IMG/VR virus record: IMGVR_UViG_2690316184_000003
Origin: a virus
Taxonomy: Duplodnaviria > Heunggongvirae > Uroviricota > Caudoviricetes
Strand: one strand, 5' to 3'
Length of the DNA: 5,505 nucleotides
The notes beneath the pieces are model-generated. The model was given only the letters and a program-made list of their open reading frames with translations. It was not told the DNA's origin and made no database searches. Both the position numbers and the translations under genes were made by a program. How positions within the stretch are numbered: position 1 is the first letter of the stretch; the number at the start of each line of letters is the position of its first letter. Shown here one piece after another: positions 1 through 5,505 of the stretch.

Positions 1-750
1 AACCTTGAAGCCTTACCAAAATATTACTCCCCAAAATCTCCAAAATTGAGCGATGACGCACCGGCGACAGGCTCAGGTGGTTTAACGATTACGGATGTGA
101 TGGCTGCGCAGGGGATGGTGCAGTCGAAAGCACCGCTTGGGTTTGCCTTATTCCTGGCAAAAGTTGGTGTTCAGGATCCTCAGTTTGCGATTGAAGGTCT
201 GCTCAATTACGCGATGGCAATGGATAACCCGACATTGAACAAATTGAGTGAAGAAACCCGGTTACAGATCATCCCTTACCTTGTGAGTTTTGCCTTTGCT
301 GATTATTCCAGGTCTGCGGCAAGTAAGGCTCGCTGTGAGCATTGTGCTGGTACTGGATTTCATAGTGTATTGCGCGAAGTGGTGAAACACTCCAGAAGCG
401 GGGAATCTGTTATCAAGGAAGAGTGGGTGAAGGAATTATGTCAGCATTGCCATGGTAAGGGAGAAGTCAGCACGGCTTGCAGAGGGTGTAAGGGTAAAGG
501 CATTGTCCTGGATGAAAAAAGAACCCGGCTTCATGGCACACCTGTTTATAAGATTTGTGGGCGTTGCAATGGAAACCGGTTTAGTCGTTTACCGACCACA
601 CTGGCACGACGTCATGTCCAGAAGCTGGTACCAGACCTGACTGATTATCAGTGGTACAAAGGATATGCAGACGTCATTGATAAACTGGTAACAAAGTGCT
701 GGCAGGAAGAAGCATTCGCTGAAGCACAATTGAGAAAGGTGACGAGATAA
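1..750 (+). CDS. Q: Late-gene antitermination protein Q (lambda Q family); 5' partial, start codon probably the 3 nt just upstream of the window
   Basis: Frame 1 is open from nt 1 to TAA 748-750; the track start at 46 is an internal TTG. The translation (NLEALPKYYSPKSPKLSDD..., TDVMAAQGM, FAFADYSRSAA, CGRCNGNRFSRLP, C-terminal VTR) matches lambda Q as I recall it (MRLESVAKFHSPKSPMMSD..., FAYADYCRSAA, CGRCKGVGYSRMP, ...VTR). It has four CxxCxGxG repeats. It sits directly upstream of a PR'-like promoter and the lysis genes. Confidence 0.85.
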   Translation, partial: NLEALPKYYSPKSPKLSDDAPATGSGGLTITDVMAAQGMVQSKAPLGFALFLAKVGVQDPQFAIEGLLNYAMAMDNPTLNKLSEETRLQIIPYLVSFAFADYSRSAASKARCEHCAGTGFHSVLREVVKHSRSGESVIKEEWVKELCQHCHGKGEVSTACRGCKGKGIVLDEKRTRLHGTPVYKICGRCNGNRFSRLPTTLARRHVQKLVPDLTDYQWYKGYADVIDKLVTKCWQEEAFAEAQLRKVTR

Positions 751-781
751 GTGATTTTCACCGAAGATGGCGACATGATGC

Positions 782-825
782 TTGCATTTCTCAAAAAATA
801 TGGATAAGATTTTCCCAACGATGGG
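782..825 (+). promoter_or_regulatory. PR'-like late promoter with a downstream -10-like pause element
   Basis: -35 TTGCAT (782-787), 17-bp spacer, -10 TAAGAT (805-810), then tttccc and AACGATGGG (817-825). Lambda PR' as I recall it has the same layout (TAAATT tgactc AACGATGGG), where AACGAT is the sigma70-dependent pause-inducing element needed for Q loading. It lies 32 nt after the Q stop. Confidence 0.65.
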
Positions 826-855: not shown

Positions 856-888
856 AACCCGCCGCCGAGCGGGTTAAATTATTTTTTC
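856..888 (+). terminator. Intrinsic terminator (tR'-like) ending the short PR' transcript
   Basis: Stem AACCCGC (856-862) / GCGGGTT (869-875), loop cgccga, followed by a T-rich tract aaattaTTTTTTc (T-run 882-887). About 70 nt downstream of the predicted PR' start. Confidence 0.55.
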
Positions 889-904
889 TTACACGGGGAT
901 ATGG

Positions 905-1435
905 ATGTTATACCGAGATCTTTTGCCTATTTTCTCAGAAAGACCCATATTTAAAGCTCCTGAGGCTGAAAGAATACTTCGTGAGCAATATTCTATCGCC
1001 GCCCCCACTCCTGTAATTCAGGAGATTTATTATGGATTGGCAGGTTATGACAGATTTCAGGAGCTTTATGGGGATCTTAATATTGACCAAATCGAATGGA
1101 AATTGATTGAACTTCCCACTAAAAATTTTTTAACTATCGGGGATAATGCTACTTACCCTGATTTTTTGCATGAGGTCGTTGAAGATTTCACAACCCGTAA
1201 AGGCGATGTATTTATGGATGATGAAATAAAAGCGCATTGGTGTAATTTTGGCACATGGTGTGAACCTCCATTTTTTATAGATCGAGCTTTGCTGAAAAGT
1301 AATACAACAGGGCTTCATTTAATGGAAGGGCATACAAGAGTTGGAACCCTGTTAGGGGCAGTTAAGTATAACTTCGTTAAGCTTGCTAATACTCATAAAA
1401 TTTATTATGCGCAAGCAAAAGAATGTATTAAATAA
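905..1435 (+). CDS. Hypothetical protein, 176 aa, AT-rich cargo (moron) gene of unknown function
   Basis: ATG at 905 preceded by GGGGAT (895-900) as a possible SD; uninterrupted 176-codon ORF. A 60-nt sample is about 37% GC against about 50% in the flanking Q and methyltransferase genes. A strong intrinsic terminator follows. I do not recognise the protein family; it contains YPD-x20-EIK, a possible PD-(D/E)xK-like motif, which is weak evidence only. Confidence 0.7.
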   Translation: MLYRDLLPIFSERPIFKAPEAERILREQYSIAAPTPVIQEIYYGLAGYDRFQELYGDLNIDQIEWKLIELPTKNFLTIGDNATYPDFLHEVVEDFTTRKGDVFMDDEIKAHWCNFGTWCEPPFFIDRALLKSNTTGLHLMEGHTRVGTLLGAVKYNFVKLANTHKIYYAQAKECIK

Positions 1436-1471: not shown

Positions 1472-1493
1472 ACCGCGTTCTCGCGGTTTTTTT
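1472..1493 (+). terminator. Rho-independent terminator downstream of the 176-aa ORF
   Basis: Stem ACCGCG (1472-1477) / CGCGGT (1482-1487), loop ttct, followed by seven T (1487-1493). Confidence 0.8.
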
Positions 1494-1616
1494 ATAAATT
1501 AAACATTGGTGCAGTACGGTAAACACGCTGGTGGTCGTGAATACTGACTTTTTATCTTGCTGGCTTTTTAGACAAGAGTTATTGGTATGTCATGTTAACC
1601 ATGAAGGTAAAAAGAC

Positions 1617-1811
1617 ATGCTAAAACAGCAAGATATGACAGAAACGGCGAAAGTTGTTTTTAATGAATTAAACGGCAAACCGGCAACAGTCGGGGAGATA
1701 GCACAAAACACATACCTTTCACGCGAACGCTGTCAGTTAATACTGACCCAGCTGGTTATGGCGGGGCTGGCAGATTACCAGTTCGGCTGTTACAGACGCC
1801 TTCAGCAATGA
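1617..1811 (+). CDS. Small winged-helix DNA-binding protein, PapI/FaeA-like (64 aa)
   Basis: ATG 1617 with GAAGG (1603-1607) about 9 nt upstream. The segment NGKPATVGEIAQNTYLSRERCQLILTQLVMAGLA resembles the PapI/FaeA pattern (NGGKTAEIAEAL...YQARYYLLLLEKAGMV, from memory). Same strand and immediately upstream of the methyltransferase gene. Confidence 0.55.
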   Translation: MLKQQDMTETAKVVFNELNGKPATVGEIAQNTYLSRERCQLILTQLVMAGLADYQFGCYRRLQQ

Positions 1812-1960
1812 AGGGCTTTTAATTTGTGAAAATGGGCGGCTGGTGGGTGTTGGTAGCACCTGCCAGCCATTCGCTCATGCTTACTGGTCACAAGCGAACC
1901 ATGGCCCACTGCTTTAGCGCAAAAGCAGAGTGAGCCTACCAGAGTTACGCTTACTGATCC

Positions 1961-3022
1961 ATGAAAAACACTGTAAAAATAAACAGTATTGATTTAATCA
2001 ACGCTGATTGCCTGCATTTTATTCAGTCCCTGCCTGATGATTCCATTGACCTGATTGTTACCGATCCGCCTTACTTCAAGGTGAAACCCAACGGTTGGGA
2101 CAATCAGTGGAAAGGGGACGAAGATTACCTTAAGTGGCTGGACCACTGTCTGGCCCAGTTCTGGCGGGTGTTGAAACCTGCCGGAAGCCTTTACCTGTTC
2201 TGTGGGCATCGCCTGGCATCTGATATTGAGATCATGATGCGTGAACGTTTCAACGTGCTTAACCATATCATCTGGGCGAAGCCGTCCGGACGTTGGAATG
2301 GGTGTAATAAAGAAAGTCTACGCGCATATTTTCCTGCCACAGAGCGCGTTCTGTTTGCTGAACATTACCGGGGGCCATATCGCGGCAAAAGTGACGGCTA
2401 TGTGGCAAAAGAAAGGGAACTCAAACAGCACATAATGGCACCGCTGATATCGTATTTCAGGGATGCTCGTGCCGAACTGGGTATAACGGCAAAACAAATT
2501 GCCGAAGCCACAGGTAAGAAAAATATGGTTTCCCACTGGTTTGGTGCCAGTCAGTGGCAGTTGCCGAATGAGGCTGACTACCGGAAGTTACAGGCACTGT
2601 TTTCCCGTATAGCGGCAGAGAAGTTTCAGGAACAACAACTGGAACAACCACACCACCAGTTGGTGGCATCTTATGATTCACTGAATCGCAAATATTCTGA
2701 ATTGCTGGATGAGTTTAAATCTCTCCGGCGCTATTTCTCCGTATCAGTCTCCGTGCCTTATACCGATGTCTGGATGCATAAACCCGTTCAGTTCTACCCG
2801 GGTAAACATCCGTGTGAGAAACCGGCGGATATGCTCAGGCAAATAATCAATGCCAGTAGTCGACCCGGCGATCTGGTTGCTGATTTCTTTATGGGATCCG
2901 GTTCCACAATAAAAGCAGCAATGGCGCTGGGGCGTCGGGCGTTAGGTGTTGAGCTTGAGACAGAGCGGTTTAATCAGACCATCCAGGAAATCAGTATGTT
3001 ATCAGCAAATACAATTTTGTGA
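1961..3022 (+). CDS. DNA methyltransferase, beta-class amino-MTase (N6-adenine or N4-cytosine), apparently orphan
   Basis: 353-aa ORF. Catalytic motif IV DPPY (IVTDPPYF) lies near the N-terminus and the AdoMet motif I FxGxG (DFFMGSGST) near the C-terminus, the circular permutation typical of beta-class MTases (PF01555-like). The middle region has an HTH-like segment (GITAKQIAEATGKK). No restriction endonuclease partner is recognisable in the window. Confidence 0.9.
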   Translation: MKNTVKINSIDLINADCLHFIQSLPDDSIDLIVTDPPYFKVKPNGWDNQWKGDEDYLKWLDHCLAQFWRVLKPAGSLYLFCGHRLASDIEIMMRERFNVLNHIIWAKPSGRWNGCNKESLRAYFPATERVLFAEHYRGPYRGKSDGYVAKERELKQHIMAPLISYFRDARAELGITAKQIAEATGKKNMVSHWFGASQWQLPNEADYRKLQALFSRIAAEKFQEQQLEQPHHQLVASYDSLNRKYSELLDEFKSLRRYFSVSVSVPYTDVWMHKPVQFYPGKHPCEKPADMLRQIINASSRPGDLVADFFMGSGSTIKAAMALGRRALGVELETERFNQTIQEISMLSANTIL

Positions 3023-3264
3023 ATTAATTCAATTATTGGTGGGATGTCTGTGCCGTATAATGATTACAGATACAGTGTATCCTGCAATGCAGCAGGGCTG
3101 ATGTGGTGGGTTGTACATAGCCTGCAAAGGATTGGCTTCATTAATTCATCGTTGATACAAGCGAGTCACGGTTGACCACGCCAACGGCTCATCGGTAAAA
3201 ATCCGACACCGTGTCTTCTTAACTCACTTATTGTTTCCACCCATGTTTTTGGATACCTGCTGTA

Positions 3265-3303
3265 GCTGTCAGATTAGCGCGATAATCTGACAGCTTTTTT
3301 TTT
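3265..3303 (+). terminator. Strong rho-independent terminator
   Basis: Perfect 11-bp stem GCTGTCAGATT (3265-3275) / AATCTGACAGC (3284-3294), 8-nt loop, followed by nine T (3295-3303). Confidence 0.85.
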
Positions 3304-3591
3304 ACAACGAATCCTTCTGATCTGCTTTTGCGGGGCTTTTTTGTATCCGCTCCATGCCCGGCGTATAAGCGGAGGTTGGTCAGTTTTCTAAAAATTGAAA
3401 TACCTCACAATTCAGCCAGTTAATGGTTGTTTGTCTGGCGAAGAGTTTGTAAATAAAAAAACGCATGGTGAATCCCCCTAAGCGGCGGGGCGAATCAGCA
3501 GTCAGTTCTGGGATAATCGCGGGTTCGTATGCTGATGCCGGACTCACCGGGAGGCACCCGGCACCATGCATCATGGTCATCCCCTTGTATG

Positions 3592-3618
3592 ATACCCCTC
3601 TCCGGAGGGGTATTTTTT
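3592..3618 (+). terminator. Rho-independent terminator ending the structured element at 3463-3590
   Basis: Stem ATACCCCTC (3592-3600) / GAGGGGTAT (3605-3613), loop tccg, then TTTTT (to 3618). Confidence 0.7.
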
Positions 3619-3622
3619 GGAT

Positions 3623-3650
3623 AAAAAAGCCCGCGCTGGGAGGCACGGGC
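3623..3650 (-). terminator. Minus-strand intrinsic terminator, convergent with the 3592-3618 terminator
   Basis: On the minus strand: GCCCGUG / CGCGGGC stem (7 bp with one G-U pair), 8-nt loop, followed by UUUUUU (plus-strand A-run 3623-3628). Confidence 0.5.
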
Positions 3651-3885
3651 GGCAAGGAATAAAACGTGAAGAAATTTTCACAGGCGCATAATAATCCGAT
3701 GTTGCCAGATTTTGCAACTGCATCATCTGGTTATTATGTGAGCTGGAAAATCAGATTCTGTATGGACTGAAGCCATGCTGTTATTTAGGGCCAAAGAGCT
3801 GGCTTTTTCCCGCCTTCTCTCCAGTAACGATTAATGAGAAAAGAATGAAATGCTTTTCCTGGGGAGGAGGGCAGTAGAAAAAAGA

Positions 3886-3943: not shown

Positions 3944-4051
3944 ATGGTTCTTCATGAAATAAGAATGTTACGCGGTATTTTTAATGAAAATGATAATTAT
4001 TGTCAATTGGTTGTGCGTATTTTTTCATACATGACTGGTAAAGGTGATTCA

Positions 4052-4083
4052 GGCCATCAGAGTTTTGCTGATGGCCTTTTTTC
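4052..4083 (+). terminator. Rho-independent terminator immediately upstream of the holin gene
   Basis: Perfect 9-bp stem GGCCATCAG (4052-4060) / CTGATGGCC (4068-4076), 7-nt loop, followed by TTTTTTcttt (4077-4086). Confidence 0.8.
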
Positions 4084-4335: not shown

Positions 4336-4680
4336 ATGGTCCAAAACTATGAAATGATTGTGAAAGGGATCCGCAATTTTGAGAATAAAGTTACGGTAAC
4401 TTTAGCATTACAGGACAAAGAACGCTTTGACGGTGAAATTTTTGACCTGGACATCTCGCTGGACCGTGTTGAAGGTGCCGCGCTGGAGTTTTATGAGGCA
4501 GCAGCCAGAAGGAGCATCAGACAGGTCTTCCTGGATGTTGCTGCCGGGTTATGTGGAGGGGATGAGCAGTCGCCGGAAAAGCGCCCCATAATTTTAGAGG
4601 CGCAGAGTGTGTGGATAACCTACAAAGGAAAACTGCCGGGAAGAATTACTGGTTCACTGAAGACTCCGCCGAAATGGTAA
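4336..4680 (+). CDS. Conserved prophage lysis-cassette protein of unknown function (resembles the small ORF found between holin and endolysin in E. coli prophages, possibly DUF826/YdfR-like)
   Basis: ATG 4336 lies 4 nt after the holin stop, with SD GAGGAGAG (4321-4328) overlapping the holin 3' end, which suggests translational coupling. 114 codons with protein-like composition. The family name is from memory and uncertain. Confidence 0.65.
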   Translation: MVQNYEMIVKGIRNFENKVTVTLALQDKERFDGEIFDLDISLDRVEGAALEFYEAAARRSIRQVFLDVAAGLCGGDEQSPEKRPIILEAQSVWITYKGKLPGRITGSLKTPPKW

Positions 4681-4918
4681 TTTCACCAGCATATTTTTCT
4701 TCCAGTAATACCGCCAGCCACTTGAAAGAATTTTGTTGTTGCTGGGACCATTTGGGGTTGAGTGATTCAAGCTGGAGCGATGCCAGTGTTGGTTGCATTT
4801 GTTCCTTGGGAATTGAGAATGCCAGATATGAAAATGCGACAGTAAGGGCATTTACATCATCCCGAAGCCTGGAAATGCAGTCGAGCAACTCCTGTAGAGA
4901 AATGGTGCTATTGTCCAT
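4646..4918 (-). CDS. Candidate small protein (90 aa) encoded antisense inside the lysis cassette
   Basis: On the minus strand a strong SD AGAGAGGA (plus 4925-4932) sits 6 nt upstream of ATG (plus 4916-4918). The ORF has protein-like composition (MDNSTISLQELLDCISRLRDDVNALTVAFSYLAFSIPKEQ...), unlike the Cys/Ser-rich plus-strand overlap 4611-4943. Its 3' end overlaps the 4336-4680 gene by 35 nt. A promoter-like TTGAAT-N15-TAAATA lies upstream on the minus strand. Confidence 0.4.
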   Translation of the reverse strand: MDNSTISLQELLDCISRLRDDVNALTVAFSYLAFSIPKEQMQPTLASLQLESLNPKWSQQQQNSFKWLAVLLEEKYAGEITISAESSVNQ

Positions 4919-5023
4919 AAACAATCCTCTCTATTGTATTTAACTATTCCTTGCCTGATTCAACAGGCCGGGACAGATAAACATATCCAGGGTTCAGAAA
5001 CCGATAAATCCTGATAAATATCC

Positions 5024-5505
5024 ATGAACGCAAAAATCAGATACAGCCTGTCGGCTACTGTACTAGTGCTGATTGGTGCAGGCGCGTCTGCTCCTCAAAT
5101 ACTTGACCAGTTTCTGGACGAAAAAGAAGGTAACCACACAACGGCATACCGTGATGGTTCCGGCATCTGGACCATCTGTCGGGGTGCCACGATGGTGGAT
5201 GGAAAACCCGTTTTTCCCGGTATGAAACTGTCGAAGGAAAAATGCGACCAGGTTAACGCCATCGAACGTGATAAGGCGCTGGCATGGGTGGAACGTAATA
5301 TTAAAGTACCACTGACCGAACCACAAAAAGCGGGTATCGCGTCATTTTGCCCCTATAACATTGGCCCCGGTAAGTGTTTCCCGTCGACGTTTTATAAGCG
5401 GCTTAATGCCGGTGATCGTAAAGGTGCCTGTGAGTCGATTCGCTGGTGCACATCAAAGCAGTCTGTCAGTCAGTGCGTGAAGCCACCACCGCCTCCGGCG
5501 TGGAT
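5024..5505 (+). CDS. R: Endolysin, GH24 (T4/P22-type) lysozyme with N-terminal hydrophobic SAR/signal-like segment; 3' partial (runs off the window)
   Basis: Translated by hand: MNAKIRYSLSATVLVLIGAGASAPQILDQFLDEKEGNHTTAYRDGSGIWTICRGATMVDGKPV...VPLTEPQKAGIASFCPYNIGPGKCF.... It shows the E...D...T catalytic pattern and overall similarity to P22 gp19-type lysozymes as I recall them. The hydrophobic N-terminus fits a SAR endolysin paired with a pinholin. No stop before 5505, which is why it is missing from the ORF track. Confidence 0.85.
   Translation, partial: MNAKIRYSLSATVLVLIGAGASAPQILDQFLDEKEGNHTTAYRDGSGIWTICRGATMVDGKPVFPGMKLSKEKCDQVNAIERDKALAWVERNIKVPLTEPQKAGIASFCPYNIGPGKCFPSTFYKRLNAGDRKGACESIRWCTSKQSVSQCVKPPPPPAW

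Follow-up and report, generated by a model that had tools for sequence, protein, structure and literature searches.

Organization of the locus

A DNA stretch of 5,505 bp, IMG/VR virus record IMGVR_UViG_2690316184_000003, was analysed computationally and is called the window throughout. It matches with 100% identity a chromosomal prophage region in several Escherichia coli strains and is the late operon of a lambdoid prophage, read on the plus strand from the Q antiterminator gene to the lysis genes. The subject of this study is a module within this operon that comprises a gene for a small winged-helix protein, termed s64, a structured leader RNA and a DNA methyltransferase (MTase) gene. An original prediction, made from the sequence alone, had pointed to two open reading frames (ORFs) of 64 and 353 amino acids (aa) on the same strand, about 150 nucleotides (nt) apart; they were located at 1617-1811 and 1961-3022 with a gap of 149 nt. 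RefSeq names them 'hypothetical protein' and 'DNA-methyltransferase' in the 100% identical E. coli chromosome. The prediction had missed the conserved RNA in the spacer, which is predicted to occlude the MTase start. The order of winged-helix gene, terminator, leader and MTase is conserved among the related loci. The MTase is a known enzyme; the module as a conserved whole, above all the leader RNA, appears to be undescribed, and the literature searched held no description of the leader, of the small ORF or of an induction-dependent expression of this MTase. The features of the module are:

1472..1494, plus strand: intrinsic terminator upstream of the cassette, from the terminator scan; a terminator is present here in every related locus, with differing sequences
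1556..1616, plus strand: block 5' of s64 (CTTGCTGG...CAGAGTTAT...GTATGTCA), including an AAGG ribosome-binding site, conserved from E. coli to Proteus
1617..1811, plus strand: s64, 64-aa winged-helix protein, ATG start; phrog_331, NCBI name 'TrmB family transcriptional regulator'
1798..1826, plus strand: hairpin across the s64 stop codon with a U-rich run, a weak intrinsic terminator (T0), from the scan and covariation
1812-1960, plus strand: spacer between s64 and the MTase gene, 149 nt
1824..1960, plus strand: predicted structured leader RNA, from consensus folding, covariation and a covariance model; no Rfam match
1832-1847 with 1859-1878, plus strand: P1, long hairpin predicted by RNAalifold
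1886-1895 with 1949-1959, plus strand: P2, closing helix predicted by RNAalifold, covering -2 to -12 relative to the MTase AUG
1903-1914 with 1923-1936, plus strand: P3, nested hairpin predicted by RNAalifold
1961..3022, plus strand: putative M.EcoGII-family beta-class N6-adenine DNA (and RNA) MTase, 353 aa, ATG start, from PF01555 and identity to M.EcoGII
3264..3303, plus strand: strong intrinsic terminator 3' of the MTase gene, 13-bp stem and T-run, from the scan; 3' boundary of the cassette region

The methyltransferase

The 353-aa protein matched PF01555 with an E value of 4.6e-42. The DPPY motif (residues 35-38) is N-terminal, followed by the target recognition domain (TRD) and the C-terminal FxGxG motif (FMGSG, residues 309-313), thus the motif order is that of the beta class, as proposed in the original prediction. 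The same prediction had suspected a relation to the prophage-borne M.EcoGII, and this was borne out by 280 identical residues of 348 (80%) over the full length including the TRD; the M.EcoGII sequence was taken from the supplement of PMC11551740 in a machine-read form with a few character-recognition errors. Identity was 81% to the enzyme of phage 1720a-02, which the M.EcoGII paper mentions for its closely similar MTase (PMC5778455), and 88% to Anc291, an ancestral enzyme obtained by reconstruction, whose purified form was shown to methylate DNA and RNA. The nearest reported site-specific relative of M.EcoGII, M.PflMI, has 27% identity. Because the identity is 80-88% to enzymes with demonstrated non-specific activity, we infer with considerable confidence that the MTase of the window methylates adenine in DNA and RNA without sequence specificity.

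The non-specific activity, silence in the lysogen and toxicity are known from the literature on close homologues (PMC5778455). Lysogens do not express M.EcoGII; if expressed, it slows growth or is toxic, and it has been proposed to protect phage DNA against restriction (PMC5778455; PMC12707154). M.EcoGII alone is fully active in vivo and in vitro. In Yersinia phage P840, lysis and lysogeny still occurred after a transposon insertion into the MTase homologue, as expected for an accessory function. Relatives of the MTase (E<=1e-20) were present in 95 records of a curated phage collection. They adjoined lysis genes in all seven records with annotation that were inspected, comprising lambdoid phages, N15, PY54, a phiKO2-like Klebsiella phage, a Vibrio phage and the P2-like phiO18P. 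No endonuclease is annotated within +/-12 kb of the MTase gene in the source genome, in agreement with the initial impression that a restriction partner is missing; PADLOC returned MTase models only, and the neighbouring genes had no match.

Co-occurrence of s64 and the methyltransferase

With the small protein as query 101 loci were fetched, 80 on viral contigs and 21 in species-representative genomes, of which about 97 had enough downstream DNA to be evaluated. The original prediction had proposed to count the two genes in other prophages: the MTase gene lies directly 3' of s64 on the same strand in about 90 of the 97 loci, and the exceptions are deletion derivatives. Six of these (L045, L058, L060, L074, L078, L100) have kept s64 and lost the MTase, with breaks within the leader at window positions ~1850, 1879, 1926 or 1939, and a further locus (L043) carries an internal MTase deletion (2246-2509). 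Such deletions would be expected if decaying prophages are under selection to lose a toxic gene.

The spacer from the s64 stop to the MTase ATG measures 142-153 nt in 94 loci, which present 38 distinct sequences from Escherichia to Proteus. The homologous block shared across loci starts at ~1480-1572 and ends at ~2979-3003. Among 5,426 complete E. coli genomes, 2,164 carry the cassette 1556-3022 at a coverage of at least 80%, with as many as eight sites in a single genome. In the loci examined s64 is always located 5' of the leader and the MTase, its family was found in no other context, and Morganella, Proteus and N15-type phages have homologues in the corresponding place. Every locus examined has the context of a phage late operon, from Q to the holin gene, and in many Shiga toxin (Stx) phages the module is located directly upstream of the stx genes. 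The near-invariant co-occurrence of s64 and MTase makes a regulatory link plausible.

A conserved leader RNA ahead of the methyltransferase start codon

Among 17 diverse loci the spacer had a mean pairwise identity of 0.88, while the flanking genes reached 0.84-0.92 at codon positions 1 and 2 and 0.52-0.53 at the third. Judged by these identities, the spacer equals codon positions 1 and 2 in conservation and is the most constrained element. Its fold in the window has a z-score of -3.8. RNAalifold predicted the helices P1, P2 and P3 unaided from the 38 distinct spacers. In this alignment 96% of the cells are paired, compared with 28-43% in slid controls, and 11 pairs change on both sides; the observed values were reached by none of 500 shuffles. 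In a broader set of 53 distinct sequences, the start-proximal pairs of P2 (-2 to -6) covary, one of them occurring as CG in 26, AU in 15 and GC in 1 sequence, another as AU in 28, UA in 14, GC in 1 and GU in 1. The folded strand is the sense transcript, as indicated by abundant G.U pairs that would be A.C mismatches on the other strand. Computationally, the leader is thus predicted to fold as a three-helix RNA in which P2 sequesters the start site of the MTase. No Shine-Dalgarno sequence is visible before the MTase AUG; together with the start-site pairing this suggests that translation of the MTase is intrinsically throttled. The segments AUGGGCG and GGCCCA, single-stranded or possibly switching, are invariant.

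A protein-coding function of the spacer was considered and rejected, since the length of the candidate, a 35-aa ORF with GTG start at 1826-1933, varies between 8 and 50 codons among relatives. An alternative hairpin, 1870-1875 with 1893-1898, shows CG/UA/AU covariation in close relatives, but only about 28 of 53 sequences of the broader set pair at 3 of its 6 positions, and it was dismissed as well. The spacer contained no transfer RNA, transfer-messenger RNA or other known RNA family. In Rfam 15 the window leader had no match below an E value of 1.6, and no match covered the leader in N15 or the Vibrio phage.

The leader in distant phages

A covariance model built from 18 leaders was searched in loci that had been fetched with the N15 and Vibrio MTases. 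Full-length matches on the same strand were obtained in 78 of 87 N15-MTase loci and 46 of 76 Vibrio-MTase loci; altogether 124 of 156 evaluable distant MTase loci have the leader. In 100 of these 124 the end of the element coincides exactly with the start codon of the MTase. For 87 of the 100, the last three model positions are the start codon called by tblastn; the other 13 end 25 nt within the tblastn match, for which the simplest explanation is that the ATG of the model is the true start and the tblastn alignment ran on upstream. A direct search with hidden Markov models found s64 in only 19 of the 156 loci, always with the leader. No ORF separates the late promoter/terminator from the MTase in N15, PY54 and the Klebsiella phage, yet all three carry the same leader element, with hairpin arms that are unrelated in sequence but complementary.

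A different layout is present in a Vibrio group (L109, 2232-3547, and about 20 related loci). Here the leader ends ~130 nt before the MTase and is followed by a 38-aa ORF for a CxxC...CxxC zinc ribbon, annotated as 'RNA polymerase subunit P', by the MTase gene 22 nt later and by a holin gene. Membership of this zinc ribbon in the Com family (PF10122) was considered and not accepted, as the match was not significant (E 0.28).

For 53 distinct sequences 88% of the cells are paired, compared with 30-42% in slid controls, and 29 of 35 pairs change on both sides, where the fitting of the two alignments (A4 and A5) to the covariance model inflates such pair counts. The covariation score of the 53 sequences is 0.45, with ~0.06 in slid controls, and the second set behaves alike. 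When the 52 distinct A4 sequences were folded to a consensus without constraints, P1, the start-proximal part of P2 and P3 were nevertheless recovered. We conclude that the leader RNA is older and wider in distribution than the lambdoid cassette.

Two folds compete for one segment of the leader. AUGGGC (1832-1837) has two mutually exclusive partners, the proximal GCYCRU (lower part of P1, 1873-1878) or the invariant GCCCA (1904-1908), which is otherwise part of P3. For the A5 set and the N15-like subgroup RNAalifold favours the pairing with GCCCA, which also appears in the minimum-energy folds of N15 and PY54. As the partners of AUGGGC are nearly invariant, covariation cannot choose between the two folds. 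Our hypothesis is that the two conserved, exclusive pairings form a switch.

The small winged-helix protein

The small ORF is under purifying selection, with ratios of non-synonymous to synonymous changes (pN/pS) of 0.06-0.34 in comparisons with orthologues whose synonymous sites are near saturation. Its AAGG-type ribosome-binding site is conserved, and 320 relatives were found at E<=1e-3. On these grounds the ORF is judged to be a genuine gene. The family is compact: an exhaustive search among 1.84 billion representative proteins yielded only 63 at E<=1e-3, mostly fragments of one enterobacterial family. Pfam returned only weak, sub-threshold matches to generic winged-helix families (TrmB 0.0074, MarR_2 0.016, DprA_WH 0.038, Rrf2). 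NCBIfam and PADLOC gave none, the PHROGs assignment is phrog_331 with 'unknown function', and neither an HTH_3 match nor a cysteine-rich zinc motif was detected. The AlphaFold model (pLDDT 86.5) presents a minimal winged helix of H1, H2 and H3 with a beta-hairpin. Its 50 best Foldseek matches in the PDB included regulators of the IclR, MarR and Rrf2 families, RNA-binding winged helices of SelB and N-terminal dimerisation domains of O-methyltransferases.

The original prediction had labelled the small protein PapI/FaeA-like and proposed a profile comparison. This label was not upheld. PF04703 (PapI/FaeA) gave no match to s64 in hmmscan at E<=0.1 or E<=10 and was carried by none of the 120 relatives listed, the comparison of the family profile with the PapI sequence (PDB 2HTJ) in hhalign resulted in a probability of 1.4% over 25 columns, and the 50 best structural matches contained no PapI entry. 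Membership in the PapI/FaeA family was therefore rejected; the resemblance is only at the level of a very common winged-helix fold.

A distant homologue of s64 is gp51 of N15 (75 aa; hhalign probability 92%, E 5e-7, 56 columns). The gp51 family, which emerged from a clustering of the ORFs next upstream of the distant MTases, holds the position equivalent to s64 and is encoded 125-140 nt upstream of the leader, with an annotated late promoter and terminator in between. Gp51 is not Q, since the telomere phages carry their Q antiterminator gene at another place, the immB region. A 98-aa ORF upstream in the Vibrio phages resembles gp51 (hhalign probability 83%, E 9e-6). A direct profile comparison of this ORF with the s64 family was not significant (probability 3.9%), so its link to s64 rests on gp51 as intermediate. 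A second s64 allele of 67-75 aa, about 50% identical, occurs in cdtI (L111, 2123-2350), mEp460 and Stx2c phages. It precedes a near-identical leader and an MTase that is 85-98% identical to that of the window. Two alleles ahead of near-identical leader and MTase sequences indicate recombination between the small gene and the leader. We regard s64 as more replaceable than the leader RNA.

Transcription signals and neighbouring genes

A scan of both strands revealed 22 terminator-like sites, where 5.9 were expected from shuffled sequences. Terminator-like hairpins on the plus strand lie at 856, 1472, 1799, 3264, 3591 and 4051. The T0 hairpin at the end of s64 covaries at one pair, with UA in 21 and CG in 15 sequences. 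Within the plus-strand region between the flanking terminators, block 1556-1616 included, the scan called no sigma-70 promoter for the cassette. The sequence 5' of this block is unrelated between loci. The block itself contained no fixed palindromic operator, and an inverted repeat in it changes register between genera. A weak promoter, an operator or an element of the 5' untranslated region are candidate roles. The other features of the window are:

1..750, plus strand: Q-type late antiterminator gene, PF03589 Antiterm (E 1e-53), RefSeq 'antitermination protein Q'; RefSeq places its start ~3 nt before the window
781-809, plus strand: putative late promoter TTGCAT-17 nt-TAAGAT, read by eye from the sequence
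856-890, plus strand: terminator hairpin with U-run, from the scan; SfV annotates a terminator at the homologous place
905-1435, plus strand: 176-aa gene, phrog_8867, function unknown, with its own terminator at 1472-1494
3434-3622, plus strand: match to the small RNA STnc100, Rfam 114.5 bits (gathering score 47), with a terminator at its end
downstream of the STnc100 match, plus strand: P21-type holin gene, DUF1327 gene and lysozyme gene (5024-5446), from domain searches and RefSeq annotation
4646-4924, minus strand: 92-aa ORF, phrog_2411 (E 3e-59), RefSeq-annotated, overlapping the 3' end of the DUF1327 gene

Q, the terminators, holin and lysozyme are present and co-oriented, while the late promoter was identified by eye only. 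From the sequence, 781-890 is likely a pR'/tR'-like unit that marks the start of the late operon. Such a unit would yield a short late RNA of ~70 nt, like lambda 6S or StxS. The motif AACGAT at 822-827 resembles the lambda pR' pause element.

The region 876-1510 with the 176-aa gene is an extra insert that is absent from SfV, and the gene is present in a subset of loci only. Searches of Pfam, NCBIfam, PADLOC and the PDB gave no match to the 176-aa protein, and its single-sequence AlphaFold model was unusable (pLDDT 34). An 'EGHTRVG' motif in it resembles ParB/sulfiredoxin, a resemblance confirmed by no search. The STnc100 match sits between the MTase and the holin gene, and many Stx-phage loci have BLAST blocks covering ~3395-3693 on the 3' side of the MTase. 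At 3986-4082 on the plus strand, an SgrS-like Rfam match below threshold (24.8 bits, gathering score 37) shares its sequence with the terminator at 4051-4077, directly 5' of the holin gene, and is probably a hairpin similarity only. The 92-aa ORF is an antisense-oriented gene within the lysis region. The source prophage is located at a DLP12-like site (intD ... ompT, envY), together with tail-fibre fragments and an iss gene, and RefSeq marks its lysozyme gene as incomplete.

A proposed late hypermethylase under multiple checks

The observed gene identities, synteny, RNA structure and covariation point, with a probability of roughly 0.6, to an anti-restriction hypermethylase that is expressed late and is held in check by terminators and by a leader sequestering its start, with s64 as a dedicated accessory, possibly regulatory, protein. 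In a lysogen without Q, transcription of the late operon would halt at the stacked terminators and the toxic MTase would remain silent. Upon induction, RNA polymerase modified by Q would pass the terminators and transcribe the module along with the lysis genes. The MTase could then methylate the replicating phage DNA before packaging, and the progeny would resist adenine-methylation-sensitive restriction in the next host. By pairing the bases just 5' of the MTase AUG with an upstream segment, the leader would throttle translation and may be switchable. The s64 protein is most likely a regulator of the leader, the terminator or nearby DNA, with a role like that of Com for mom in phage Mu, and would not be essential for catalysis.

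Several observations weigh against this interpretation. The leader was not detectable in 32 of the 156 distant MTase loci, e.g., phiO18P. The lower stem of P2 is weak in the broad set, with 64% paired, and the broad pair counts are inflated by the fitting mentioned above. The preference for the AUGGGC/GCCCA pairing in some lineages suggests that the repressing fold may not dominate everywhere. The s64 protein has a near-neutral charge and a hydrophobic third helix, which is unusual for a nucleic-acid binder, and its best fold matches include winged helices for protein dimerisation in O-methyltransferases. The putative pR' promoter at 781-809 was not called by the promoter scan. The source prophage is probably defective, so this MTase copy may never be induced.

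Other roles of the small protein have to be weighed against an accessory of a late, leader-controlled gene. As a controller-like transcription factor acting on DNA, at block 1556-1616 or in the spacer, s64 would regulate itself and the MTase. The weak TrmB, MarR and Rrf2 matches, the IclR and MarR structures among its fold matches, the conservation of the upstream block across genera and the strict synteny would fit. A part of this idea was contained in the original prediction, which compared s64 with controller proteins of restriction-modification (R-M) systems: the regulatory link remains plausible from the co-occurrence, but the analogy fails on the fold, which is not an XRE-type helix-turn-helix (HTH), and on the context, which has no endonuclease. 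The factor would also have neither a sigma-70-like promoter on the plus strand between the flanking terminators nor a conserved palindromic operator to act on, and s64 with its lack of HTH_3 is not of the C-protein family. In the spacer it is RNA pairing that is constrained, as G.U pairs and compensatory changes show, and not a DNA motif, and the N15 homologue is encoded upstream of the late promoter and terminator, not beside the MTase start. We regard transcriptional control by s64 as doubtful. PapI is also a winged-helix protein, and the two genes of the window are adjacent and co-conserved, which had led to the proposal of a PapI/FaeA-type factor and a self-contained, Dam/PapI-like epigenetic switch resembling phase variation. 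This proposal is highly improbable. The family-level comparisons described above speak against it, the context is a phage late operon and not a fimbrial switch region, and an enzyme family with every adenine as a target and no expression in the lysogen (PMC5778455) is unable to lay down a site-specific pattern that is inherited.

The remaining alternatives move the function away from nucleic-acid regulation by s64. The protein may bind the MTase as an antitoxin-like inhibitor, a chaperone or a modulator of activity. Its top Foldseek matches are N-terminal winged-helix dimerisation domains of O-methyltransferases dependent on S-adenosylmethionine (SAM), its near-neutral charge and hydrophobic third helix would suit an interface, the MTase family is toxic, and beta-class MTases act as dimers (PMC7544214). 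Such a partnership is nevertheless unlikely: M.EcoGII is fully active alone, s64 alleles of ~50% identity accompany nearly identical MTases in cdtI and mEp460, which argues against a tightly co-evolving interface, and the genes are separated by a terminator and 149 nt, unlike toxin-antitoxin pairs. Quite improbable is that the spacer RNA serves processing or stability, e.g., as an RNase III site in the 16-18-bp P1, or is released as a small RNA, with the small ORF as a hitch-hiking moron. The long P1 hairpin, close to perfect and with an internal loop, is taken to resemble phage RNase III sites, another small RNA (STnc100) lies in the same late region, and the Vibrio element ends ~130 nt before the MTase. 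A processing element would not explain the exact end at the MTase start codon in 100 of 124 loci and the covariation of the start-proximal helix; moreover, the Vibrio leader precedes a small ORF with the MTase 22 nt later, and the s64 family occurs in no other context.

Within the interpretation of a late, leader-checked hypermethylase, a further-reaching idea is tentative: the leader may represent a new class of bistable RNA that gates the translation of a promiscuous adenine MTase, triggered by s64, the MTase, or SAM or S-adenosylhomocysteine, in an ancient circuit common to lambdoid, N15-like and Vibrio phages. M.EcoGII has found wide use as a reagent for chromatin and RNA footprinting. Its natural biology ended so far at a lysogen-silent, toxic and probably anti-restriction enzyme. 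The module offers a testable control architecture for the whole family, consisting of stacked terminators, a covarying leader predicted to hide the start and a dedicated small protein, and the leader is a candidate for a new family of cis-regulatory RNAs with a sequence diversity sufficient for both experimental and statistical validation. If s64 acted as an RNA-binding translational regulator, a winged helix would have a role that is unusual for phages.

Comparison with known systems

The non-specific adenine MTases M.EcoGII and M.EcoGI of E. coli O104:H4 prophage origin (Murray et al. 2018, PMC5778455) belong to the same family and share with the window MTase, 80% identical to M.EcoGII, the beta-class architecture and the prophage location. 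Phage 1720a-02 has the same layout as the window, with the small ORF, a spacer of ~150 nt and the MTase. The M.EcoGII papers examined describe neither the upstream small ORF nor the leader RNA that are present here. With the late morons of lambdoid phages 3' of Q/pR', e.g., stx, the module shares the slot from Q to lysis and the flanking terminators, but in telomere phages of the N15, PY54 and phiKO2 type it also opens the late operon.

The C proteins of R-M systems are XRE-type HTH proteins that bind C-boxes and control mainly the endonuclease gene. The likeness to them lies in a small gene upstream of an R-M-type enzyme gene whose expression it may time; in contrast, the locus described here has no endonuclease and no HTH_3 protein, and the conserved intergenic signal is an RNA structure. 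PapI/FaeA (PF04703; PDB 2HTJ) are likewise small stand-alone winged helices of similar size, without sequence or profile similarity to s64, and their genomic context and partner-enzyme logic differ from those of s64 and the MTase.

The closest functional parallel is found in com-mom of phage Mu and in Mu-like operons of com and a non-specific alpha-class MTase (PMC6483171, PMC3299994). Common to them and the module are a toxic, late anti-restriction gene that is silent in the lysogen, a small protein gene upstream on the same transcript and an mRNA structure, computationally predicted in the module, that sequesters the start. In the Mu and Mu-like operons the small upstream protein opens the inhibitory mRNA structure at the start of the toxic late gene (PMC6483171, PMC3299994). 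The components are unrelated: s64 is a winged helix and not a Com zinc finger (PF10122), the enzyme is of the beta class and neither Mom nor alpha-class, the leader is a three-helix element of ~135 nt instead of a single stem-loop, and a terminator is located between the small gene and the leader. A zinc-ribbon ORF occurs in the Vibrio variant only. If s64 or a metabolite indeed flips the leader, evolution would have solved a second time, independently, the problem for which Mu uses Com. The likeness to Mu com-mom is one of working principle, not of membership.

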